Below, piece after piece: positions 31,216-45,265 of a stretch of 64,000 bases of DNA. The DNA comes from Escherichia phage inny. The notes under the pieces were generated by a model. That model saw only the letters and a list, made by a program, of their open reading frames with translations, had not been told where the DNA came from and searched no databases. A program made the translations under genes and the position numbers. The stretch lies in sequence record MN850601.1, one strand, 5' to 3'. Position 1 is the stretch's first letter; each line of letters begins with the position of its first letter.

Positions 31216-32100
31216 TTATTTTTGAATAGTTGACTTAATAAGGTCTTGCATAATACCACGGATTTCATTAAAGCACAGAAGGACAGATGCTTCAAAAGAT
31301 CCTTCTTCATCGTTAAAGTATTTAGGGAATTTAATACCACTCAACTTAAATTCTTTATCAACAATAAAGTTAACGAAACCGTCATATTCCAGGCCAATGG
31401 CAACAACGTGCTTACCATCTTCCATAAGTTCTACTGCACGAGATTCATAAAGGGATTCTTTACTCCATACAACCACACCTTCAGAATCTTCAAGTTTAAT
31501 ATAATTACCAAGGGTCAGTCGTTCAGCCTCATGTTCTTCTAAGATGGTATCAAAACCTTTAATAATGGCCTCTTCGTGTACACTAAACGGCAGGACTGGG
31601 AAAGTACCCAACACCTCACGAAGAAACACAGCAATATCTTCACTAATTTTCTTAGTACCATTAAGAACGTAGGTAATACTGTTTTCAGTGTCTACAACAA
31701 CATAGTTATAGAAATCATCTGCCTCTGTTTCTGGGAGCAGAGAAAACACGATATCAGCCTCAATTGCTTTCTTACTTTCTTTGTCCAAGAAGAATTCTTT
31801 AGTAGGATTTGCAGCAATAAACTCTTGTTCCATCTCTTTGAGTTTTTCATTAAGAATGCGTTTAACTTTTTTCTTGTTAACTTTCTTAACAGATTGCCCT
31901 ACTTTAATAACCTCTAAACCAGAGAACACTTTTACATAGGAACCATCATCTTCAAAACGAACAAGACCAATGGTATGCGCTTGTTGACCCTGTGCCACAA
32001 CAAAATCCAGCGGTTTGTCTGTTACTGTGTTCAGTGCGGAAATAGACAGACCATCACCAGAAATCAGGGTTACGCAAGATTTGAAATTTTTAGCAAACAT
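31216..32100 (-). CDS. RdgC-like recombination-associated protein
   Basis: LGTFPVLPFSVHE vs RdgC LGSLPVVPLSMEN; FVNFIVDKEFKLSGIKF vs RIQFVMCDDGSLKRLKF; size about 300 aa. Confidence 0.6.
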   Translation of the reverse strand: MFAKNFKSCVTLISGDGLSISALNTVTDKPLDFVVAQGQQAHTIGLVRFEDDGSYVKVFSGLEVIKVGQSVKKVNKKKVKRILNEKLKEMEQEFIAANPTKEFFLDKESKKAIEADIVFSLLPETEADDFYNYVVVDTENSITYVLNGTKKISEDIAVFLREVLGTFPVLPFSVHEEAIIKGFDTILEEHEAERLTLGNYIKLEDSEGVVVWSKESLYESRAVELMEDGKHVVAIGLEYDGFVNFIVDKEFKLSGIKFPKYFNDEEGSFEASVLLCFNEIRGIMQDLIKSTIQK

Positions 32101-32425: not shown

Positions 32426-33148
32426 TTAAGCAATGATTGCTGCGATATTAGGTTTAACAAAGGTAGATGGTTTCATAATTTTACCTTTGTCATCAAAGAA
32501 TACGTATACCTTTTGAACTTCGTTATATACAGCATGTACCCCAGTATAAGAACCTTCTGCACGATCTTTGCTTCGCATCTCGATAGCATCGCACTCTTTT
32601 TCAAGAGCTTCAATAATATCCTTAGTTTCCCAAATAGCCAGGAGTTGCTTCTTGGTAGGATACTTGGACTCATTGCTATTCAACACTTCACGCATAACCT
32701 TCTTCTCGTTATAAACAGAACGCACCAAAGTATCTCGTGCCATACGGGTAAGTGTAAGAGACATTAAGGCAAATTGCAAGTCATTTTCTACCATTTTATC
32801 AAATTCAATGATAACATCGTAAATGTTCTCTGCCAGAACATCTCCTGTTGGCATTTCCAGAGCTTTATCAACACCTTCTTTACCAAAGAACATAAATGCC
32901 AGGTAGGATGCTACCACAAAAATATCTGCTGCTGCATCAAGTAATTCAACGTGATCATTTTCCTGTGCTGCTGCTTGAAACTCTTTAAGTTCTTCTCGTA
33001 CAAAAGAAAGTTGAGCTTCAAACATCTCTTGAGTAAATTCTGGGGTTACTCCACCACGTGCCTTAGCATTCCAAGCAACAATTTGATCGGCAGTTTTGAT
33101 AAAGAAGCTATTGTCCACTTTTACTTGTTTGAAAAAATTCTCGATCAT
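32426..33148 (-). CDS. MazG-like nucleotide pyrophosphohydrolase domain protein (putative)
   Basis: REELKEF...ELLDAAADI resembles MazG/all-alpha NTP-PPase ExxE...ExxD metal-binding helices; weak. Confidence 0.35.
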   Translation of the reverse strand: MIENFFKQVKVDNSFFIKTADQIVAWNAKARGGVTPEFTQEMFEAQLSFVREELKEFQAAAQENDHVELLDAAADIFVVASYLAFMFFGKEGVDKALEMPTGDVLAENIYDVIIEFDKMVENDLQFALMSLTLTRMARDTLVRSVYNEKKVMREVLNSNESKYPTKKQLLAIWETKDIIEALEKECDAIEMRSKDRAEGSYTGVHAVYNEVQKVYVFFDDKGKIMKPSTFVKPNIAAIIA

Positions 33149-33345: not shown

Positions 33346-34461
33346 TTACTCTGCTGGTTCCCAAGTACCTGGAATCATCTTACGTACACGTACCCCAACA
33401 GGCTTGGTAGGAATACCTTCGTCTGAAAATTCTTCGTACTCTATTTCAACAAATTGACCAATAAGTGTCAAAGCATTTTCTTCTTTACGATAGTTAATGG
33501 TTTCATCTGAATCCTTACGCATCAGGAATTCGACTACTTTACCATTTTCCATCTCTCCTGTCAATACCCCGTCACCATTTTTATCACGCTTTGCACTTAC
33601 CACTTTAACTTCAAGCGTCTGCCGTGGTTTACGTTTAATAACATCATAAGAACGTTTATCGAATTCGTAAACACCTTTTGCGTTACGATACACCACACCT
33701 TCCGCTTTCTCACGTAGAGCTTTTGCATAGAAAGCATCAAACTGTTCTTGGTTTTCAATGTACTCTGTATGTACTACACAAATAAGTTCATCTAAACCTT
33801 TATCTTCAACAACTTCTTTTAGAGCAGCCAAAACTTGAACCCTCTTCTCAAATGGTACAGATGCCACAGGAACATCATATACATAGTATTTAAGAAGTGG
33901 TGTGTTAGCATTATGCTTTTTCCACGCACTATTAATTTGTTGAAGGCTAAGGACACCCAAACCAGCAAAAACTTCACCGTCAAGAGGATGACCAACTACT
34001 TCTTTAATGAAGGTTGGAATTTCTTCCCAGTGAGGTGGAAGTTTATATACCTCCCCAGCTTTAGATAAACATTCACCTTGCATGTTAATCATTGAACGTA
34101 GACCATTCAATTTATATTGTGCATAACCAGGGAACAAAACACGATCAGCATAATCTTTATAATCCTGACATTTCATGGGTGTGGAAGGAACATGGTTTTC
34201 AGCTTCCTCTTTTGTTTTATAGTACCCATTCTTAAGTTGCTTTGTCCATTTGGCAAGAGCTTCTATTTCAGCTTGTTCTTCTGCTGTTGTTTCATTTGAG
34301 CGACCAATATTTTTAGGTTCTGCCGTATAAGATTTGCTAGTGATCTTTCCACCTAATTGACCATGAGCAACAGTTACAACACTACCTTCGGTATAGACTG
34401 ACCACTGTCTAATTTTACCTGTAGAAGTTTTACCATATAATGTAGGATTAGTTTGTTTCAT
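33346..34461 (-). CDS. ATP-dependent polynucleotide ligase (DNA-ligase-like) with atypical motif I KLNGLR
   Basis: Motif I YKLNGLR (Asn where KxDGxR has Asp), motif III PLDGEVFA, motif IV EGVVYRN, motif V DVIKRKP, C-terminal OB-like; start trimmed to ATG after GGAGG. Confidence 0.65.
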   Translation of the reverse strand: MKQTNPTLYGKTSTGKIRQWSVYTEGSVVTVAHGQLGGKITSKSYTAEPKNIGRSNETTAEEQAEIEALAKWTKQLKNGYYKTKEEAENHVPSTPMKCQDYKDYADRVLFPGYAQYKLNGLRSMINMQGECLSKAGEVYKLPPHWEEIPTFIKEVVGHPLDGEVFAGLGVLSLQQINSAWKKHNANTPLLKYYVYDVPVASVPFEKRVQVLAALKEVVEDKGLDELICVVHTEYIENQEQFDAFYAKALREKAEGVVYRNAKGVYEFDKRSYDVIKRKPRQTLEVKVVSAKRDKNGDGVLTGEMENGKVVEFLMRKDSDETINYRKEENALTLIGQFVEIEYEEFSDEGIPTKPVGVRVRKMIPGTWEPAE

Positions 34462-34651
34462 CTTTAACCTCCAGTTGCGAAAGAACCCATTTAGCCATTT
34501 CAATTTCACCGTGTAGTCTGCCTAGTTCATAGGCATCATCAATATTACCACCAGTGTAATCATCCACCATAAAGTAAGGATCTTCACTACTGTTAGGCGC
34601 GTTTGCAATTCTCGTTAGTTCTTCAATAAATGTCATAGTTAACCTTACCAA
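34448..34651 (-). CDS. hypothetical acidic protein (67 aa)
   Basis: ORF track. Confidence 0.4.
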   Translation of the reverse strand: MVRLTMTFIEELTRIANAPNSSEDPYFMVDDYTGGNIDDAYELGRLHGEIEMAKWVLSQLEVKDETN

Positions 34652-35202: not shown

Positions 35203-35607
35203 TTATTGTAGCTTAAGTGAACTGCGAAGACGTTCCTCTTGCTGATCACGAATATGTTGTGGAACCTCATGAATTGAATCGTTACCGTGCCTATTCTCCA
35301 CAACTAAAGAAATAACTTGATAACCAAACTCTTCAGCAAGAGTTAAATAAGGTTTAAGTTCTTTTTCTGTAGTAGAGGTATTAGAAACAATAATCTTTTC
35401 AACACCATACTGCATATATTTTTGTACTTTGACACGACACCATTGGTGTGCTTTATGGATATTCTCTTGTTTCCACTCATACACACCATCTTCAGTGTAG
35501 TGGTATTGATCTGCCTCACAAATAGGCCAATGATTTTCAGAGATAATTTCTGCTACTGTAGATTTACCTGCACCTGAAACACCACGTAAAATGATAAGTT
35601 GTTTCAT
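35203..35607 (-). CDS. P-loop polynucleotide kinase-like protein (Pnk kinase domain-like)
   Basis: MKQLIILRGVSGAGKSTVAEII resembles T4 Pnk N-terminal kinase P-loop; immediately follows ligase gene. Confidence 0.6.
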   Translation of the reverse strand: MKQLIILRGVSGAGKSTVAEIISENHWPICEADQYHYTEDGVYEWKQENIHKAHQWCRVKVQKYMQYGVEKIIVSNTSTTEKELKPYLTLAEEFGYQVISLVVENRHGNDSIHEVPQHIRDQQEERLRSSLKLQ

Positions 35608-36540
35608 TTAGCCTCCAAAGAAGTTTTCTATTTCTTTACGTCGCTCTTGTGGATCGAGAGCAGCCCATTGAGCCTTCGTAAATTTATTTCGAAGCCATTC
35701 TAGCAAAGTATAATATTCTTCGTCAACAATTTGTTTAGCATTGTTTGGGTTGTCCCAAATCATATCCCACTTCTTATTGCCACCACGCATAAGGAATTTC
35801 TTAGCAAGATAGTATGGTGACTTAATCTTTAAGAGTAAGTTAAACGGATAGTTTGTTTCACGAACAACAAAGCCTTCGTGTCTACAATGTTTAGACATTT
35901 CAACAACATCTGAAAATTTAATCATTGGATAAACTTCAGGACGTTTAAATTTTGTAATAGATGCAATCCCATCAAGAACACCTTCAGGTAACATGAAACT
36001 TGTCCCATCAAGATTTTGAATTCTTGCTCCAATTAAGTATGCGCCTGGTTCTTCTTCGACAATATGTGGATCAGAAGGATCACAGATTTCAAAAAGGAAA
36101 GTTGCTTTTGCACTTTCTGTCCACTTAATGAAATACTCTATGTCATCACACTCGGAAACAATACGGTTCTTGGCAATAGTTGCAAAGTCTGACTCTAGGC
36201 TCCCTGTTGTTGATACAACAAGTTGCCCTTTGTACACACCTACAGATGCCATAAAACCGTTTACTTTACGGACAGCATCTACAAATTCATCTCCTGGAAG
36301 ATCTGTACCATTCTCAAAACGATTAAAGATTTTAGTAAAAGGCCAAATAACAATATTATCTTCTGAATCAACAACCAACCCACGACAATCTAAAAGTCGT
36401 TTGTCAACGTTCCACAAGTTATCCCAGAATACATTGTTTTTGTATTTAAGTACAGCAAGACCAGCATACTCTCCAGATTTAACTTCTTTTTTATGCACTA
36501 AACCTTTTGCAATCAGGTCATCACAATTGAACTTAGCCAC
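35608..36540 (-). CDS. RNA ligase-like nucleotidyltransferase (Rnl family, motif I KVNG)
   Basis: VRKVNGFMASV (KxNG motif I), EGFVVRE (motif IV), LLLKIK (motif V); flanked by kinase and phosphoesterase. Confidence 0.55.
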   Translation of the reverse strand: MAKFNCDDLIAKGLVHKKEVKSGEYAGLAVLKYKNNVFWDNLWNVDKRLLDCRGLVVDSEDNIVIWPFTKIFNRFENGTDLPGDEFVDAVRKVNGFMASVGVYKGQLVVSTTGSLESDFATIAKNRIVSECDDIEYFIKWTESAKATFLFEICDPSDPHIVEEEPGAYLIGARIQNLDGTSFMLPEGVLDGIASITKFKRPEVYPMIKFSDVVEMSKHCRHEGFVVRETNYPFNLLLKIKSPYYLAKKFLMRGGNKKWDMIWDNPNNAKQIVDEEYYTLLEWLRNKFTKAQWAALDPQERRKEIENFFGG

Positions 36541-36541
36541 C

Positions 36542-37093
36542 TTAATCTCCTTTGATTATCTTATGATGATCTACAACAATAATATCACGCTTATCCATAA
36601 TAGAGATGATTTCGTCAAAATGTAAGATTTTCCCGTGTGCATCCCAACCAACATCCAACATTTTCCCATACAAATGATCAGGGAATGATCCGTGAGAGTG
36701 TCCGTGTAGCATGATTGATCCATGCCCTTGTTTATTCCAGGCAGCCATAGGGTAATGACTTAAGACGAAGAACAGCTTCTGATATTTCACTTCGTCATAA
36801 TACACAACTTCTCCATACTCTGCAAGCACTTTTCTGTGTTTACTGTAATCATGGTTCCCAACACAGTAAGTAATATCCCCTTGGAGACGGGAAGCAATCT
36901 TACGGGTATCTTCTTCAGTCCCGAAACAGAAGTCCCCAAGATGGTACATCTTTACTCCTGGTGTTGTGGCACATTTATTCCATGCTTCGATCAGTGCTTC
37001 TGTCATATGCTCCATATCTTCCCACGGGCGATATTCAGGAGCAAACTCTCGGATACGTTTGTGCATAAAATGCAAATCACTTGTAATAAACAT
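36542..37093 (-). CDS. calcineurin-like metallophosphoesterase
   Basis: SDLHF, GDFCFG, GNHDY, HGHSHG metal-binding motifs. Confidence 0.75.
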   Translation of the reverse strand: MFITSDLHFMHKRIREFAPEYRPWEDMEHMTEALIEAWNKCATTPGVKMYHLGDFCFGTEEDTRKIASRLQGDITYCVGNHDYSKHRKVLAEYGEVVYYDEVKYQKLFFVLSHYPMAAWNKQGHGSIMLHGHSHGSFPDHLYGKMLDVGWDAHGKILHFDEIISIMDKRDIIVVDHHKIIKGD

Positions 37094-39999: not shown

Positions 40000-40893
40000 A
40001 TGAAAGTTAGTATTCTACATGGTGTTGACTGTTATGTTACTGATGTAGACGTTAAAGTCTTTACATTCTCTGGTGGAGAACAACATGTTCAACTAGACAC
40101 GAATCTATCAGGTTTCAATCATGCTACAGACAGAATCTTACTCTCTTTAGAAGTAAGATCTGCTAAAGACTTGATGACTTTGGTTATGACTAAGAATGCA
40201 TTGGACAATATGCTATATCATAAACCATATTGTGTTGATTTACTCATGTTGTATGTGCCGTATGCACGACAAGACAGAGTGTGTGAGCCTGGGGAAGCAT
40301 TCGGAGTTAAAGCCTTTGCTTCTATAATTAATTCATTAAATTTCTCACGTGTTATCGTTGCTGATCCACATAGTGATGTTACTCCGGCAGTGTTTGACAG
40401 ACTCTGTGTAATACCTCAAGAAGAGATTGCTTACGAAACTTTAAAGTGGAAGTTACGTATGGAGAATTTTGCTCTTGTTAGTCCTGATGGTGGTGCTCTT
40501 AAGAAAATATTTAAATTATCTAAGAAAATGTCTTTAGATGTGTTCTGTGCAGAGAAGGTTAGAGATACTGCAACAGGTGCTATTGTTCGTACAGACATTT
40601 CTGTACAGGATTTCAATAAGCGTAACCTGATGATCGTAGATGATATCTGTGACGGCGGTAGAACTTTTATTGAATTGGCTAAAGTGCTACGTGCTCGTAA
40701 CGCAGGTAAGATTGAGTTATATGTTACACACGGTATCTTTTCTAAAGGTCTTAAAGAGTTAAGTGAGCACTTTGACTGCATTCATTCTCTTAATGTGTGG
40801 GAAGATAACATCCAAGAAGATTCCGGTGTTCTTGTTAAGAATCAGTCAGATTTGCAACAACAAATTGTATCTCCATACGTGTGGAATTTTTAA
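40000..40893 (+). CDS. ribose-phosphate pyrophosphokinase family protein (Prs-like; candidate ADP-ribose pyrophosphokinase of an NAD+ reconstitution pair)
   Basis: PRPP-synthetase-like motifs VADPHSD and MIVDDICDGGRTF; 297 aa; AGGAGA RBS. Confidence 0.8.
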   Translation: MKVSILHGVDCYVTDVDVKVFTFSGGEQHVQLDTNLSGFNHATDRILLSLEVRSAKDLMTLVMTKNALDNMLYHKPYCVDLLMLYVPYARQDRVCEPGEAFGVKAFASIINSLNFSRVIVADPHSDVTPAVFDRLCVIPQEEIAYETLKWKLRMENFALVSPDGGALKKIFKLSKKMSLDVFCAEKVRDTATGAIVRTDISVQDFNKRNLMIVDDICDGGRTFIELAKVLRARNAGKIELYVTHGIFSKGLKELSEHFDCIHSLNVWEDNIQEDSGVLVKNQSDLQQQIVSPYVWNF

Positions 40894-40964: not shown

Positions 40965-42698
40965 ATGAATATTTTTGCACCTTTTGCTACTGATTGGTAT
41001 AAACCTGGTCACAAGCAGATGTACAACCAAAATACAAAACTCATTTTCTCTAATTTAACTCCTCGTAATGATAAAAACTTTGCACACTATGCAGATCGTG
41101 AAGCACGTGGTGTAATTGTTTTAGGTATTCGTCGAGCAGTTACTGATGCTCTTGTAACTATGTGGGATAGCTTCTTTAAAATGTCTCGTAGTGCAGCAGT
41201 AAATAAATTTTATCGTATGTCTAAAAATGCATTAGGTGCTTCTGCTCCTTCTGCTGAATGTTGGGGAGAATTGCACGATTTAGGTTATCTTCCGCTGGAA
41301 GTTCGATCTCTGCCAGAAGGTGTTTTGTGTCCTATTGGTGTTCCTGTGTTTACTGTGCATAATACTTTAGAAAAATTCTTTTGGTTAACTAACTATGTGG
41401 AAACACTATTGTCAGATGAAACTTGGAAGACAATGACTAATGCTACAGCAGCTTTTCAGTATAAGCGTATTGCTATGGCATATGCGATGGCAACGTGTGA
41501 TAATATTGATCATGTTAACTTCCAGTGTCATGATTTTAGCCTACGTGGTTTAAGTAATATCGAAGATGGTTATAAGAGTGGTATCGCTCATTTGGCATCT
41601 TTCACAGGAACAGATAACATTCTGGCTATTGAGACTGTGCATGATTATTATGGTATTGATTATGATCAGTTTGTTGCAGGTTCTATTCCGGCAACAGAAC
41701 ATTCAGTAGCAACGACTAACATTGGAGCTATTGTTGAAGATCTGAAGAAACATTTCCCACATCTTAAAGATGATGTTGATGGGCTTCGTTATGTAGCAGA
41801 GAAAGAGTTTCTTCGCCGCTATATTGAAGAAATTGTTCCAGAAGGTTTTTGTTCATATGTAGCAGATTCTTATGACTACTGGGCTGTCTTGACTCGCATT
41901 CTGGTCGAGTTGAAAGATTCCATTATGTCACGAAATGGTCGTCTTGTTATTCGTCCAGATTCAGGAGATCCGGTTAAAGTTGTTGCAGGATACAATGTTG
42001 AATCTTTTGATAACTATGAAGACCTTTTAAATAATGGTATTGCTACAGCCACTGAAGTAGTTCATTTGGCTGATGTTAATAAGTATTACAATGTTCTTCA
42101 GGATTGCAGTGTTGCTGATTGTATTGATGAAACTTATGAGATTCCTTATTGTGAAGCAGTAGGTTCTATTCAAATCCTTTGGGAAGTGTTTGGTGGTACT
42201 ATCAACCGAAAAGGCTACAAGGTTCTTGATCAGCACATCGGTATGATTTATGGTGATTCTATTACTGTTGAACGAGAACACGAAATCTTACGCCGACTGA
42301 AGAAGAAAGGTTTTGCAGCTTCCAATATTGTATTTGGTGTTGGTAGTTATACTTATCAGTTCAATACACGAGATACTTTTGGTTTTGCTGTTAAAGCAAC
42401 AGGTAGTATCATCGGTGAACACGAAATTTTGGTAAGTAAGGAGCCTAAAACTGATCCTGGTAAACGTTCTGCAAAAGGTTTTATTAAGGTTGTTAAGGAT
42501 ACAAACGGTAAACTTTCTCTCGTGGATAATCTTTCTTTTAAAGATATTCAAGATGAAGACAATGAGTTAAAAGTTATCTTCAGGGATGGTACGGTTATTA
42601 CACCACAAGTAGAAGGACGTGATGAAACATTTACGGATATCCGCAATCGTGTTGATGTAGAGGTTCTTCGTACTATGGGAACCATCCAGGTTGACTAA
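40965..42698 (+). CDS. nicotinamide phosphoribosyltransferase family protein (NadV/NAMPT-like; candidate nicotinamide ADP-ribose transferase)
   Basis: N-terminal FATDWYKPGHK (NAMPT DxYKxxH), 577 aa, family-typical size. Confidence 0.8.
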   Translation: MNIFAPFATDWYKPGHKQMYNQNTKLIFSNLTPRNDKNFAHYADREARGVIVLGIRRAVTDALVTMWDSFFKMSRSAAVNKFYRMSKNALGASAPSAECWGELHDLGYLPLEVRSLPEGVLCPIGVPVFTVHNTLEKFFWLTNYVETLLSDETWKTMTNATAAFQYKRIAMAYAMATCDNIDHVNFQCHDFSLRGLSNIEDGYKSGIAHLASFTGTDNILAIETVHDYYGIDYDQFVAGSIPATEHSVATTNIGAIVEDLKKHFPHLKDDVDGLRYVAEKEFLRRYIEEIVPEGFCSYVADSYDYWAVLTRILVELKDSIMSRNGRLVIRPDSGDPVKVVAGYNVESFDNYEDLLNNGIATATEVVHLADVNKYYNVLQDCSVADCIDETYEIPYCEAVGSIQILWEVFGGTINRKGYKVLDQHIGMIYGDSITVEREHEILRRLKKKGFAASNIVFGVGSYTYQFNTRDTFGFAVKATGSIIGEHEILVSKEPKTDPGKRSAKGFIKVVKDTNGKLSLVDNLSFKDIQDEDNELKVIFRDGTVITPQVEGRDETFTDIRNRVDVEVLRTMGTIQVD

Positions 42699-43445: not shown

Positions 43446-43521
43446 GGTTCCATAGCTCACTGACGAGAGCGCACACCTCATAAGTGTCGAGGGCAGGGAT
43501 TGTAACCCTGGGGAACCACCA
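43446..43521 (+). tRNA. tRNA-like gene, anticodon CAT (Met or Ile2), non-canonical T-loop ATTGTAA
   Basis: Hand fold: acceptor GGTTCC/GGAACC, D-arm GCTC...GAGC, anticodon loop CTCATAA, T-stem CAGGG/CCCTG, encoded ACCA end. Confidence 0.45.
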
Positions 43522-43552
43522 TTTAAAAGGAGGTGCTATGCATCTCCTATAT

Positions 43553-43638
43553 GCAAGTGTGGTGGAATTGGTGATACACATTGTGCTTAAAACGCAACGC
43601 TTAAATGATTGAGGGTTCGAATCCCTCCACTTGCACCA
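43553..43638 (+). tRNA. tRNA-Leu (anticodon TAA), type II
   Basis: Hand fold: acceptor GCAAGTG/CACTTGC, anticodon loop CTTAAAA, long variable arm, T-arm GAGGG-TTCGAAT-CCCTC, encoded CCA. Confidence 0.75.
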
Positions 43639-43640
43639 AC

Positions 43641-43746
43641 GCCTAGTAGGGTATTTGGTAATTCCGAGGCCATCAAAGCCTGAAAAATATGTTAGACCGT
43701 TTTGTCTAACTAAATACGAAATATGGTTCGATTCCATAACTAGGCT
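43641..43746 (+). tRNA. atypical long tRNA-like gene (106 nt); possible anticodon TCA (opal-reading) - uncertain
   Basis: Perfect acceptor GCCTAGT/ACTAGGC and T-arm TATGG-TTCGATT-CCATA; candidate anticodon loop CATCAAA; 7-bp hairpin in extended variable region; no encoded CCA. Confidence 0.3.
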
Positions 43747-43781
43747 CCCGATTTAAATAGTAATTTTTTAATAAAAATATC

Positions 43782-43810
43782 TTGACATTTACTTAGTTTT
43801 TTGTTATAGT
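43782..43810 (+). promoter_or_regulatory. sigma70-like promoter (TTGACA-N17-TATAGT)
   Basis: Near-consensus; transcript would start right at tRNA-like gene at 43822. Confidence 0.55.
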
Positions 43811-43821
43811 CATTATGAAAA

Positions 43822-43903
43822 CGGGGTGTATCTCACCTGACTTCTAATCAGGCGTTAACCGAGTAATTGGAGTATGCAGGTTCGAATCCTGTCACCCCGG
43901 CCA
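43822..43903 (+). tRNA. tRNA-Arg-like (anticodon TCT) with non-canonical architecture (no D-arm, 23-nt insert before T-arm)
   Basis: Perfect acceptor CGGGGTG/CACCCCG, anticodon arm CCTGA-CTTCTAA-TCAGG, T-arm GCAGG-TTCGAAT-CCTGT, encoded CCA; only 7 nt between acceptor and anticodon stem. Confidence 0.4.
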
Positions 43904-43920
43904 AAAAGTTTTAAAAACTA

Positions 43921-43949
43921 CTTGACAAGCAAGATAGTTTTATGTTAGA
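43921..43949 (+). promoter_or_regulatory. sigma70-like promoter (TTGACA-N17-TTAGAT)
   Basis: Consensus -35; upstream of tRNA-Ser. Confidence 0.45.
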
Positions 43950-43965
43950 TTTAAAGTATGGTAAC

Positions 43966-44055
43966 AGGAAGGTAGGGCGCAGCGGTGCGCAACCAGGTTT
44001 GAACCCTGGCCCATTGTAGCGATACGGTGATGGTTCGACTCCATTATCTTCCTCC
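43966..44055 (+). tRNA. tRNA-Ser (anticodon TGA), type II
   Basis: Hand fold: acceptor GGAAGGT/ATCTTCC, anticodon arm CCAGG-TTTGAAC-CCTGG, long variable arm, T-loop TTCGACT, encoded CCA. Confidence 0.65.
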
Positions 44056-44236
44056 AAATTCGCTTAGGAGCTTTATGAATTATAAAACTATTGGACAGAT
44101 TGTTACCGGAGTTAAGATTGTAAATAATAAAGTTGTTTATGAGTATTCTAATCTTCAACAATCTGAAGATGGTAAGAATATTCGTATGGTAAAAGCAGAA
44201 CAAAAAGATTCCGGTTGTTTTGAATAATTAAGAACG

Positions 44237-44321
44237 GTAGATTGGTGAAATGGTAGCCACAACAGTTTGCTAAACTGTCGTCGGAAACGGCGTGTAGGTT
44301 CAAGTCCTACATCTACCGCCA
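44237..44321 (+). tRNA. tRNA-Ser (anticodon GCT), type II
   Basis: Hand fold: acceptor GGTAGAT/ATCTACC, anticodon arm ACAGT-TTGCTAA-ACTGT, variable hairpin CGTCG-GAAA-CGGCG, T-arm GTAGG-TTCAAGT-CCTAC, CCA. Confidence 0.7.
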
Positions 44322-44491
44322 AGTTATCTTTAATGTAGCTTGTTGCTCTTAGTTGCTTGGTGTAACTTTTTGGAAGGATGGCTGCAACCATCTTACTTTA
44401 ATAGAGTAAACTTTCGGCAGATGGCCCCCACCATCTTACCGATACCTCATAGTTAGTGGTGCGAACACTGGCTATTTTAAAGATAATTTAT
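44322..44491 (+). other. unassigned structured spacer inside tRNA array (two GATGG-loop-CCATCTTAC hairpins)
   Basis: Repeated motif CCATCTTAC and hairpins resembling the 3' end of adjacent tRNA-Ser; no complete cloverleaf found by hand. Confidence 0.3.
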
Positions 44492-44567
44492 ACATCGTTA
44501 GCTTAGTTGGTAGAGCAAGGGGCTTTTAACTCCAAGGTCGAAGGTTCGAATCCTTCACGATGTACCA
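44492..44567 (+). tRNA. tRNA-Lys (anticodon TTT)
   Basis: Hand fold: acceptor ACATCGT/ACGATGT, D-arm GCTT-AGTTGGTA-GAGC, anticodon loop CTTTTAA, T-arm GAAGG-TTCGAAT-CCTTC, CCA. Confidence 0.7.
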
Positions 44568-44572
44568 AACAC

Positions 44573-44659
44573 GTAGGTATCGCATAGCGGCAATTGCTGG
44601 AGACTGTAAATCTCCTGCCCTTCGGGGCTTCGTTGGTTCGAGTCCAACTACCTGCACCA
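44573..44659 (+). tRNA. tRNA-Tyr (anticodon GTA), type II
   Basis: Hand fold: acceptor GTAGGTA/TACCTGC, anticodon arm GGAGA-CTGTAAA-TCTCC, variable hairpin, T-arm GTTGG-TTCGAGT-CCAAC, CCA. Confidence 0.7.
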
Positions 44660-44666
44660 AATTAAA

Positions 44667-44751
44667 GATGGATTGGCCTAGTGGTTGGGCGACGGACTGT
44701 TAATCCGTGAACGAAAGTTCTAGCAAGGTTCAAATCCTTGATCCATCGCCA
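44667..44751 (+). tRNA. tRNA with Asn-type anticodon arm (GTT) but long 15-nt variable arm
   Basis: Hand fold: acceptor GATGGAT/ATCCATC, anticodon arm ACGGA-CTGTTAA-TCCGT, variable hairpin GAAC-GAAA-GTTC, T-arm CAAGG-TTCAAAT-CCTTG, CCA. Confidence 0.6.
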
Positions 44752-44830
44752 AATAGTGCTTGTAGAGTTAATAGAAACCTCTAGAATTTTCTAGAATTGT
44801 AGGTATCAAATCCTACCAAGCAAATATTTT

Positions 44831-44905
44831 GCTCCTATCGTATAACGGCTATTACGGTTGCCTTGTAAGCAACTTATCAGGGTTCGAGTCCTTGTGGGAG
44901 CACCA
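44831..44905 (+). tRNA. tRNA-Thr (anticodon TGT)
   Basis: Hand fold: acceptor GCTCCTA/TGGGAGC, anticodon arm GTTGC-CTTGTAA-GCAAC, T-arm CAGGG-TTCGAGT-CCTTG, CCA. Confidence 0.7.
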
Positions 44906-44927
44906 ATTTAACTCTAAAGGAGTGTAT

Positions 44928-45251
44928 GTGACAGAAAAAGAGTTAGAGAAATATTTTAATATCAATGTTTTCGATGGTTTTGATGATATTGAAGATGTTG
45001 AAAGATATTATGAAGTAGAGTTAGATAAGGATAACATTGTAATTCTTTCTGCCACTTATGATTGTGCATATTATGAAGGCGAATCTCACGTTTATTTCTA
45101 TGATATGAAAACATCTTTGTTTTATGAAGTACACGCATATCATTGTTCTTGTTATGGCTTAGAAGGTCAGTGGGAACCTGAAGAAATAGGTGATTTGAGC
45201 TTTACGGTTGCATATCTAAACAGACGTGGTGCATCTACTATTTTAAAATAA
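44928..45251 (+). CDS. hypothetical protein embedded in tRNA array (about 107 aa)
   Basis: ORF track 44829-45251 trimmed to GTG after AAGGAG RBS to avoid overlap with tRNA-Thr; Cys/His/Tyr-rich. Confidence 0.45.
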   Translation: MTEKELEKYFNINVFDGFDDIEDVERYYEVELDKDNIVILSATYDCAYYEGESHVYFYDMKTSLFYEVHAYHCSCYGLEGQWEPEEIGDLSFTVAYLNRRGASTILK

Positions 45252-45265
45252 ATATTAAAAGCCTC

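Follow-up and report, generated by a model that had tools for sequence, protein, structure and literature searches.

The window analysed here is the whole 64,000-nucleotide stretch of Escherichia phage inny (MN850601.1), a phi92-like E. coli myophage. Its open reading frame list includes a complete gene on the minus strand at 33346..34461, coding for 371 aa plus the stop, with an ATG at 34461 and a stop codon at 33346-33348. The sequence reads a Shine-Dalgarno GGAGG (34468..34472, minus strand) 6 nt 5' of this ATG; the same ribosome-binding site is annotated in phi92, and the gene coordinates agree with those of phi92 gp091. A GTG start would extend the reading frame to 34509, but this longer frame overlaps the upstream gene and differs from the start annotated in phi92. 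The encoded protein is 100% identical to the 'putative ATP-dependent DNA ligase' of phage Paula. Relatives occur in 958 phage records, and in 877 of these the match covers at least 80% of the protein. More than 100 genomes already have the gene annotated as a DNA ligase, and the Asn is a natural variation of motif I that was known before.

Three domains can be distinguished in the ligase, all on the minus strand. [quoted passage not shown] It is followed by a nucleotidyltransferase (adenylation) domain (about residues 96-280; 33622..34176), seen both in the AF2 model with Foldseek and by Pfam, where PF01068 (DNA_ligase_A_M) matches residues 96-278 with 44 bits against a cut-off of 26.2 (E 2.7e-11) and is found in all 123 family members scanned. 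An OB-fold domain (about residues 281-371; 33349..33621) completes the protein. PF14743 (DNA_ligase_OB_2) matches it weakly (E 0.006; found in 95/123 family members), and the AF2 model aligns by Foldseek over the ASFV OB domain, which bears out the OB-like C-terminal region proposed in the first-pass annotation. Consistent with these assignments, the protein matches PHROG 114 'ATP-dependent DNA ligase' (E 1.8e-74), its best NCBIfam match is PRK09125 (LigE-type) with a score far under the cut-off of that model, and the Foldseek matches of its AF2 model (pLDDT 93.8) are DNA ligases throughout.

The conserved motifs are in place, again all on the minus strand. Motif I reads K117-L-N119-G-L-R122 (34096..34113) and aligns with K151-R-N153-G-V-R of the ASFV ligase and K-I-D-G-I-R of PBCV-1, with the Asn119 codon read as AAT at 34105-34107. 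K117 and G120 are found in 144/144 aligned distant representatives and R122 in 133. The predicted acceptor of AMP is K117, whose counterparts in the alignment are the catalytic Lys151 in ASFV and Lys27 in PBCV-1. Motif III is L160-D-G-E163 (33973..33984; E163 in 146/147 aligned representatives). A motif IIIa region, K191-YYVYDV197 (33871..33891), is putatively assigned through its alignment with PBCV-1 'YYWFDY'; a Tyr or Phe occupies position 195 in 148/149 aligned representatives, and Y195 is predicted to be the aromatic residue that stacks on adenine. Motifs IV, E254-G-V-V-Y-R259 (33685..33702), and V, V274-I-K276-R-K278 (33628..33642), are similarly conserved, with E254, G255, K276 and K278 each in 148/149 aligned representatives; conservation of motifs III, IIIa, IV and V was read from a set of 150 distant representatives. 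In the OB domain, a motif VI-like stretch, G356-V-R-V-R360 (33382..33396), aligns with ASFV 'VGFRE' and PBCV-1 'IGIRH', and R360 is found in 141/141 aligned representatives. [quoted passage not shown] The protein has what defines the DNA ligase family, namely the adenylation model, the Lys nucleophile, motifs III, IIIa, IV and V and an OB domain with the motif VI Arg, except that the textbook motif I Asp (KxDGxR) is Asn119.

The cofactor is probably ATP. In favour of NAD+ or GTP instead, nicotinamide phosphoribosyltransferase and PRPP synthetase genes (NAD salvage) lie about 6 kb away. However, neither the LigA-type adenylation domain nor domain Ia, a zinc finger, HhH or BRCT was found in the protein with Pfam and NCBIfam, whose matches were all to ATP-dependent models. 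Weak capping-enzyme matches occur in just 8/123 relatives and not for the phage ligase itself, viral NAD+- and ATP-dependent ligases form separate lineages (PMC9503650), and crystals of the homologous ASFV enzyme were obtained with ATP (PMC6344480). Use of NAD+ or GTP is accordingly a very remote prospect.

The closest structural relative is the ASFV ligase (AsfvLIG, NP419L; PDB 6IMJ/6IMK/6IML/6IMN; Chen et al. 2019, PMC6344480). Searched against PDB chains, the family profile matches it with E 6.2e-25 (profile positions 38-365), with LigE (1.4e-18) and PBCV-1 (7.5e-16) next, and the top six Foldseek PDB matches of the AF2 model are ASFV ligase chains. The match to 6iml_A (E 4.9e-25, TM 0.78 query-normalised) spans 405 aligned columns and all three domains, while the TM of the remaining ligases is at most 0.61. 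The homology includes the N-terminal domain, once called 'unique' to the ASFV enzyme. AsfvLIG binds ATP and seals DNA nicks, and its motif I is K151-R-N153-G-V-R (PMC6344480). Ligase activity, cofactor and substrate of the phage protein would follow from this homology, at about 22% identity.

Asn in motif I is widespread among the relatives of the phage ligase. KxNGxR is found in 111/120 close homologues, and in about 143 distant representatives the residue is Asn in 53 and Asp in 87-90, with at least 24 D/N changes at this position on an NJ tree of the family. In other active ligases the third position of motif I may be Asp, Asn, His, Met or Ser (PMC4797309). With Asn153 in the ASFV enzyme and these further active variants, an Asp in motif I cannot count as a strict hallmark of DNA ligases. 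Since Asn is common in a very large phage ligase family and is present in the solved ASFV ligase, it is no anomaly in the phage enzyme; Asn119 is neither a defect nor a specificity switch but one of two common, repeatedly swapped states. The first-pass annotation had named, as a finding that would refute its view, a firm place among ordinary phage DNA ligases with this substitution, and phylogeny gives the protein that place.

Asn119 has a negligible chance of being a sequencing error or the mark of a decaying, inactive gene, an explanation whose sole point is the departure from textbook KxDGxR. Were it an error, re-sequencing should give Asp (GAT), but the codon context AAA TTG AAT GGT CTA CGT is identical in the independently sequenced phi92 and EmilieFrey. 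Synonymous differences exceed non-synonymous ones across the gene (25:9 against phi92 and 16:3 against EmilieFrey), the catalytic residues are kept and the Asn recurs in the homologue clusters counted above; error and decay were rejected on these grounds.

Tolerance of Asn in these enzymes may depend on a second site. In human LIG1 and human LigIV the motif I Asp forms a salt bridge with an Arg of the OB domain (Asp570-Arg871 and Asp275-Arg577, respectively; PMC6344480, PMC6035275). The LigIV D275A change abolishes nick sealing (PMC6035275), and the motif I Asp of the Chlorella virus ligase is reported, in work cited in PMC4797309 and PMC6035275, to be essential for step 2. Together these suggest that, where the active site is canonical, an Asn would do harm. 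In the phage ligase the Arg partner is missing: P351-T352-K353-P354 (33400..33411, minus strand) aligns with the OB position of ASFV Leu402-Gln403, human LIG1 R871-F872 and the PBCV-1 Arg-Phe, so that T352/K353 stand there. Among the distant representatives, Arg at position 352 accompanies a motif I Asn in 0/53 and a motif I Asp in 28/87 (Fisher 3e-7, with sequences counted and kinship ignored). Based on this co-occurrence count, we propose that loss of the Arg compensates for Asn. In the family, Asn is found only in members where the OB-domain Arg, the salt-bridge partner of Asp in the closed complex of canonical ligases, is also lost, and the neutral Asn probably keeps a hydrogen bond or a water-mediated metal contact for which a charged partner is not needed. 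Such a contact is known from fungal Trl1, where Asn150 reaches the catalytic metal via water (PMC6379707).

A second ligase-fold enzyme with Asn in motif I had been noted about 1 kb away, and this too is confirmed. The gene (35608..36540, minus strand) codes for a 310-aa protein that matches PF09511 (RNA_lig_T4_1) with 53 bits against a cut-off of 28.3 and PHROG 562. Its motif I, at 36256-36267 on the minus strand, reads K92-V-N-G-F; KxNG is kept in 121/121 homologues, and K92, N94, G95, E151, E222, G223, K238 and K240 are invariant among the 121 sequences. A sequence search of PDB chains with this protein gave no meaningful match, only one ribosomal protein at E 0.26. Two genes on the same strand adjoin it. 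One (35203..35607) encodes a 134-aa P-loop kinase (AAA_33 E 1.8e-10; PHROG 2071 and PHROG 505 'polynucleotide kinase'), whose counterpart in EmilieFrey is annotated as a polynucleotide kinase; the other (36542..37093) encodes a 183-aa metallophosphoesterase with a weak Metallophos_2 match and PHROG 547 phosphoesterase at E 8.5e-55. The kinase is a polynucleotide-kinase-like candidate for end healing and the metallophosphoesterase a candidate end-healing phosphatase. On sequence grounds, then, the KVNG enzyme belongs to the Rnl1 family of RNA ligases and lies within a putative phosphoesterase/ligase/kinase RNA-repair cassette.

Since characterised RNA ligases, fungal Trl1 (PMC6379707) and MthRnl (PMC4797309) among them, normally have KxNG as motif I, Asn119 could be taken to mark an RNA ligase, or one acting on RNA-splinted or hybrid substrates. 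Weak PF09414 (RNA_ligase) matches in 28/123 family members point the same way but are expected from similarity at the superfamily level, and the phage protein itself has no RNA-ligase Pfam match. Its significant sequence and structure matches are all to OB-domain DNA ligases, its N-terminal domain resembles a duplex-DNA-binding domain, D and N swap freely inside one orthologous family, and the phage already encodes a dedicated Rnl1-type RNA ligase. RNA specificity is thus very unlikely for this enzyme. The earlier view that substrate specificity was not obvious for either enzyme gives way to a division in which the first groups within phage DNA ligases, with its prevalent Asn and ASFV relative, and the second within the Rnl1 family, with its uniform KxNG.

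The likeness to AsfvLIG raises the further question of fidelity. The residues called 'unique' to the ASFV nick site are Asn153, Leu211, Leu402 and Gln403. Two are shared by the phage ligase: Asn153 corresponds to N119 and Leu211 to L173 in S172-L173-Q174 (33940..33948, minus strand), a site that is invariant among close homologues and where human LIG1 has Phe635; the role of Leu211/Phe635 at the nick has been described (PMC6344480). The phage enzyme might therefore, like that of ASFV, be a repair specialist of low fidelity that tolerates mismatches, with the combination of Asn, Leu and no Arg at the nick site relaxing discrimination on the 3' side. The rigid Asp-Arg/Phe-Phe set of high-fidelity human LIG1 is missing from it, with T352/K353 instead, and its N-terminal domain is homologous to that of ASFV, which binds DNA strongly and is indifferent to mismatches. 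However, the phage ligase has Thr at position 352 and Lys at 353, where ASFV has Leu and Gln. According to Chen et al., the cause of the low fidelity 'remains elusive', and fidelity was not carried over when the four residues were exchanged (PMC6344480). No PolX or BER partner is found in the annotation. Furthermore, the annotation of EmilieFrey, a near-identical complete genome, gives one DNA ligase only, the counterpart of this gene, and that genome encodes its own DNA polymerase, primase/helicase, 5'-exonuclease and DnaQ-like exonuclease. The phage has a proofreading replisome and no other annotated DNA ligase, so the enzyme must also seal the bulk of Okazaki fragments, which counts against a low-fidelity specialist. 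Such a role is compatible with that of an ordinary phage DNA ligase but claims more, and we consider it rather improbable.

The explanation we regard as very likely is that this is the gene for the ATP-dependent DNA ligase of the phage itself, an enzyme with a WGR-like N-terminal domain followed by nucleotidyltransferase and OB domains in an ASFV-type architecture, and that Asn is a normal variant in it. From the homology, residue conservation, Asn distribution and genomic context we infer its activity, its use of ATP, its biological role and the reason for the Asn. Under this scenario, Lys117 would attack ATP at its alpha-phosphate, giving ligase-AMP, and the N-terminal domain, through its KN-G--NET loop and long helix, would clamp nicked duplex DNA together with the OB domain. 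The AMP would then be moved onto the 5'-phosphate at the nick, and attack by the 3'-OH would seal it. The role of the ligase is most likely the joining of Okazaki fragments and of recombination and repair nicks from the phage replisome.

Fold comparison gives the N-terminal domain a WGR fold, with an antiparallel sheet packed on a C-terminal helix. The Pfam WGR model (PF05406) does not match this domain at E up to 1 and is matched by 1/123 family members (E 0.007), so that the fold comparison and one weak profile match are the basis for calling it WGR-like. A more far-reaching idea, which we hold only tentatively and think more doubtful than not, is that the 'completely novel' fold of the ASFV N-terminal domain and the motif I Asn are hallmarks of a huge phage and giant-virus family that numbers over 3,400 clusters at 50% identity. 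The N-terminal domain would be a divergent WGR, the break-sensing module of PARP, and Asn would be permitted only after loss of the OB Arg, yielding a sub-class with a 'soft' nick site that may accept mismatched or unusual ends at the nick, as in ASFV. The ASFV ligase is a candidate drug target whose N-terminal domain and Asn153 were called unique; tying it to thousands of phage homologues offers possible tractable models, and its N-terminal domain can be recognised as WGR-like. The suggested coupling of motif I Asp or Asn with the OB-domain Arg is testable, and members of the phage family are candidates for new ligation reagents.

A survey of NAD systems (PMC9503650) does not mention WGR-ligase fusions, and a literature search found no characterised Cronobacter-phage ligase; a bioRxiv study of phage polymerases with a PolX-and-ligase repair system does not deal with this ligase family. 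The KVNG enzyme is like T4 Rnl1 with Pnkp in being an RNA_lig_T4_1 member with end-healing candidates alongside, though kinase and phosphatase are two separate small proteins here and a single Pnkp in T4. T4 Rnl1 has KEDG as its motif I. That its motif I residue is Asp is also recorded in PMC4797309, and in its KxNG the KVNG enzyme is like fungal Trl1 (PMC6379707).

The DNA ligase has counterparts in both bacteria and viruses. PBCV-1 ligase (1FVI, 2Q2T) and bacterial LigE (4D05, 6GDR) share its adenylation/OB_2 core with motifs I, III, IIIa, IV, V and VI. Unlike the phage ligase, they are without an N-terminal DNA-binding domain and have a canonical KxDGxR and the OB Arg-Phe pair. The bacterial 'WGR + NT + OB_2' ligases of Williamson & Leiros 2020 (PMC7470946) likewise fuse a WGR-type N-terminus to an NT-OB_2 core; in them Pfam sees the WGR, whereas it does not in the phage domain, which is likened to theirs by description and on that footing has an additional conserved loop. 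AsfvLIG is like the phage ligase in lacking Arg-Phe in the OB domain, although that pair of positions is Leu-Gln in AsfvLIG and Thr-Lys in the phage ligase, whose N-terminal domain is also about 25 residues shorter N-terminally. AsfvLIG is the BER ligase of a eukaryotic virus, whereas the phage enzyme is probably the replicative ligase of a bacteriophage.

The ligase gene (33346-34461, minus strand) encodes 371 aa from an ATG with GGAGG 6 nt upstream; a longer, GTG-initiated ORF that extends to 34509 overlaps the upstream gene, and the phi92 annotation uses the other start. All the motifs listed in the first-pass annotation were found in the sequence: motif I as K117-L-N-G-L-R122, with Asn119 encoded by AAT at 34105-34107, along with L160-D-G-E163, E254-G-V-V-Y258 and I275-K-R-K278. 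The protein matches PHROG 114 'ATP-dependent DNA ligase' (E 1.8e-74) and Pfam DNA_ligase_A_M (44 bits, above the cut-off of 26.2), and has a weak Pfam match to OB_2.

Escherichia phage Paula matches this region at 99.4% identity, the complete genome of EmilieFrey at 99.3%, and phi92, which is classified in Justusliebigvirus, Stephanstirmvirinae, at 97.7%. The Paula 'putative ATP-dependent DNA ligase' is 100% identical to the ligase, and the phi92 counterpart is gp091. A sequencing error at the Asn codon, or a pseudogene, is vanishingly improbable, as the same AAT is found in phi92 and EmilieFrey and synonymous differences exceed non-synonymous ones (25:9 and 16:3, respectively). Judging from these comparisons, Asn119 is real and the gene is under purifying selection.

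[quoted passage not shown] With the family profile, ASFV ligase is matched at E 6.2e-25 over profile positions 38-365, ranking above the bacterial minimal ligase LigE (1.4e-18) and the Chlorella virus PBCV-1 ligase (7.5e-16). A template-free AlphaFold2 model (pLDDT 93.8) has ASFV ligase chains as its top six Foldseek hits in the PDB (E 4.9e-25, TM 0.78), the alignment spanning about 405 columns and all three domains in the closed, DNA-bound form; for ligases other than ASFV, the catalytic core alone was aligned (TM <=0.61). Motif I of ASFV ligase reads K151-R-N153-G-V-R, with Asn as at N119 of the phage ligase, and this viral ligase both binds ATP and seals nicked DNA (PMC6344480). Chen et al. 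described four ASFV residues at the nick site as 'unique': Asn153, Leu211, Leu402 and Gln403, where human LIG1 has Asp570, Phe635, Arg871 and Phe872, in that order (PMC6344480). An ASFV-like low-fidelity specialisation of the phage ligase, which would be compatible with a role as an ATP-dependent DNA ligase rather than exclusive of it, is possible but unlikely.

Asn in motif I is common in this family. KxNGxR is found in 111 of the 120 best homologues (47-99% identity) and KxDGxR in the other nine. When 1.84 billion cluster representatives were searched with a profile, 3,447 matched at E <=1e-30; of the best 150 of these, nearly all full length with the N-terminal domain included, 87-90 carry Asp in motif I and 53 carry Asn. 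On a rough neighbour-joining tree of 143 of the 150, parsimony requires at least 24 Asp/Asn changes, compared with about 43 when tips are randomly shuffled; the position flips often. The remaining catalytic residues, K117, G120, E163, E254, G255, K276, K278 and R360, are essentially invariant across the 150. In the phage collection, relatives occur in 958 records, almost always annotated as DNA ligase, including Felixounavirus, PB1- and PaP1-like Pseudomonas phages, rV5-like phages and phages of Vibrio, Erwinia and Campylobacter. Given the Asn counts and these records, the ligase is therefore placed within ordinary phage DNA ligases that carry the same Asn, which the first-pass annotation had seen as a departure from KxDGxR.

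Motif I is also a typical active-site position for inteins. Six long relatives of 706-785 aa were seen (P0123, P0147, P0156, P0176, P0184 and P0191), five of them with an intein-like insertion of ~330-400 aa inside motif I; the junctions read KLDG | C...VHN | CR, the +1 Cys supplying the 'x' of KxDGxR. In P0123 the C-terminal HN | C junction alone is visible.

In the closed complex of human LIG1, motif I Asp570 is salt-bridged to OB-domain Arg871 (PMC6344480), as is Asp275 to Arg577 in that of LigIV. T352-K353 of the phage ligase (T352 codon at 33406-33408, minus strand) align to ASFV L402-Q403 and to the Arg-Phe pair found in the PBCV-1 and human enzymes. Among the best 150 of the 3,447 representatives, Arg occupies position 352 in 28 sequences with motif I Asp and is absent from 59, while none of the 53 with Asn has it (Fisher 3e-7, a test that ignores kinship among representatives). 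The neighbour-joining tree implies at least 14 changes in the Arg352 state, and the canonical quartet D/F/R/F is present in 23 representatives of the same family bearing this N-terminal domain. Close homologues pair Asn with Thr or Gln (112 cases) and Asp with Leu (eight) or Thr (one). We infer that Asn is tolerated, or favoured, after loss of the charged Arg partner.

Active ligases have Asp, Asn, His, Met or Ser at the motif I position; MthRnl Asn99 and the Trl1 Asn are dispensable, and Trl1 Asn150 contacts the catalytic metal via water (PMC4797309, PMC6379707). The literature thus shows that the position is not a specificity determinant. The alternatives raised by the Asn, that the enzyme is an RNA or hybrid ligase or that it uses NAD+ or GTP, are very improbable and highly improbable, respectively.

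The N-terminal domain (residues 1-95; 34177-34461, minus strand) is WGR-like in fold, as is that of ASFV ligase, to which it is homologous. A profile of this domain alone matches the ASFV domain (E 2.3e-7) and 2ra8 (E 0.018), the matched 2ra8 segment being a true Pfam WGR domain (E 6.6e-19); the Pfam WGR model did not pick up the phage domain. The ASFV match takes in an invariant K-N-x-G-x-x-N-x-T-T loop, residues 85-92 in ASFV, whose Lys89/Lys90/Asn91 tip fits the DNA major groove (PMC6344480). The ASFV domain was described as a 'completely novel' DNA-binding fold similar in sequence to no other DNA ligase (PMC6344480). However, it is not unique but common to a very large family of phage and giant-virus ligases, since it is matched by the phage family profile and, in BFVD, the same domain occurs in DNA ligases of Solivirus and of pithovirus-like giant viruses, standing at the head of the latter. 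Yutin & Koonin had earlier grouped ASFV ligase with bacterial and phage ATP-dependent ligases, and Williamson & Leiros noted WGR-NT-OB_2 ligases of bacteria, leaving ASFV ligase as a single node.

The phage protein is very probably a functional ATP-dependent DNA ligase. By homology, ATP would adenylylate Lys117, the WGR-like and OB domains would encircle nicked duplex DNA, the 5'-phosphate at the nick would receive AMP and 3'-OH attack would seal it. The enzyme likely serves the phage replisome by joining Okazaki fragments and closing nicks that arise in recombination or repair. It is the only DNA ligase annotated in EmilieFrey, which has genes of its own for a DNA polymerase, a primase/helicase, a 5'-exonuclease and a DnaQ-like exonuclease. 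The gene sits in a long minus-strand early/middle block, adjoining genes just downstream for an RdgC-like recombination-associated protein (31216-32100; Pfam RdgC, E 3.7e-19) and a MazG/PRA-PH-like nucleotide pyrophosphohydrolase (32426-33148; Pfam), both on the minus strand. GC skew changes sign at ~4 kb and ~40 kb, coinciding with the switches between plus- and minus-strand gene blocks.

On the plus strand, ORFs of 297 and 577 aa (40000-40893 and 40965-42698) are the counterparts of the PRPP synthetase and nicotinamide phosphoribosyltransferase genes of phi92 and EmilieFrey, which serve NAD+ salvage; EmilieFrey also has a sirtuin-family and a macrodomain protein. These genes suggest NAD-related counter-defence, which has no connection to the ligase cofactor.

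The second ligase-fold enzyme (35608-36540, minus strand) does have Asn in motif I (K92-V-N-G), as noted in the first-pass annotation, and belongs to Pfam RNA_lig_T4_1 (Rnl1 family), with KxNG[F/Y] in 121 of 121 homologues; no sequence relative was detected among solved structures. Genes for a metallophosphoesterase (36542-37093) and for a P-loop protein resembling polynucleotide kinase (35203-35607) abut it on either side with no intergenic gap, and 35203-37093 (minus strand) appears to be a cassette for heal-and-seal RNA repair like T4 Pnkp with Rnl1, in which, unlike in T4, kinase and phosphatase are separate small proteins. A cluster of 15 tRNA genes (43446-46196, plus strand) includes tRNA-Lys(UUU), which fits the nearby cassette because this tRNA is a classic target of host anticodon nucleases. 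With one enzyme in the DNA-ligase family and the other in the Rnl1 family with its cassette, the two assignments are clearly separable, and the view that substrate specificity is not obvious does not hold.

The ligase is thus of ASFV type, ordinary among phage DNA ligases and already annotated as one. Its Asn is frequent, has arisen repeatedly in the family and is found in a solved, active homologue, and the implied specificity puzzle is therefore resolved. The added value is modest: features thought 'unique' to ASFV ligase are tied to a vast phage family, in which the N-terminal domain is WGR-like and Asn and the OB-domain Arg are mutually exclusive, kinship being ignored in that test.
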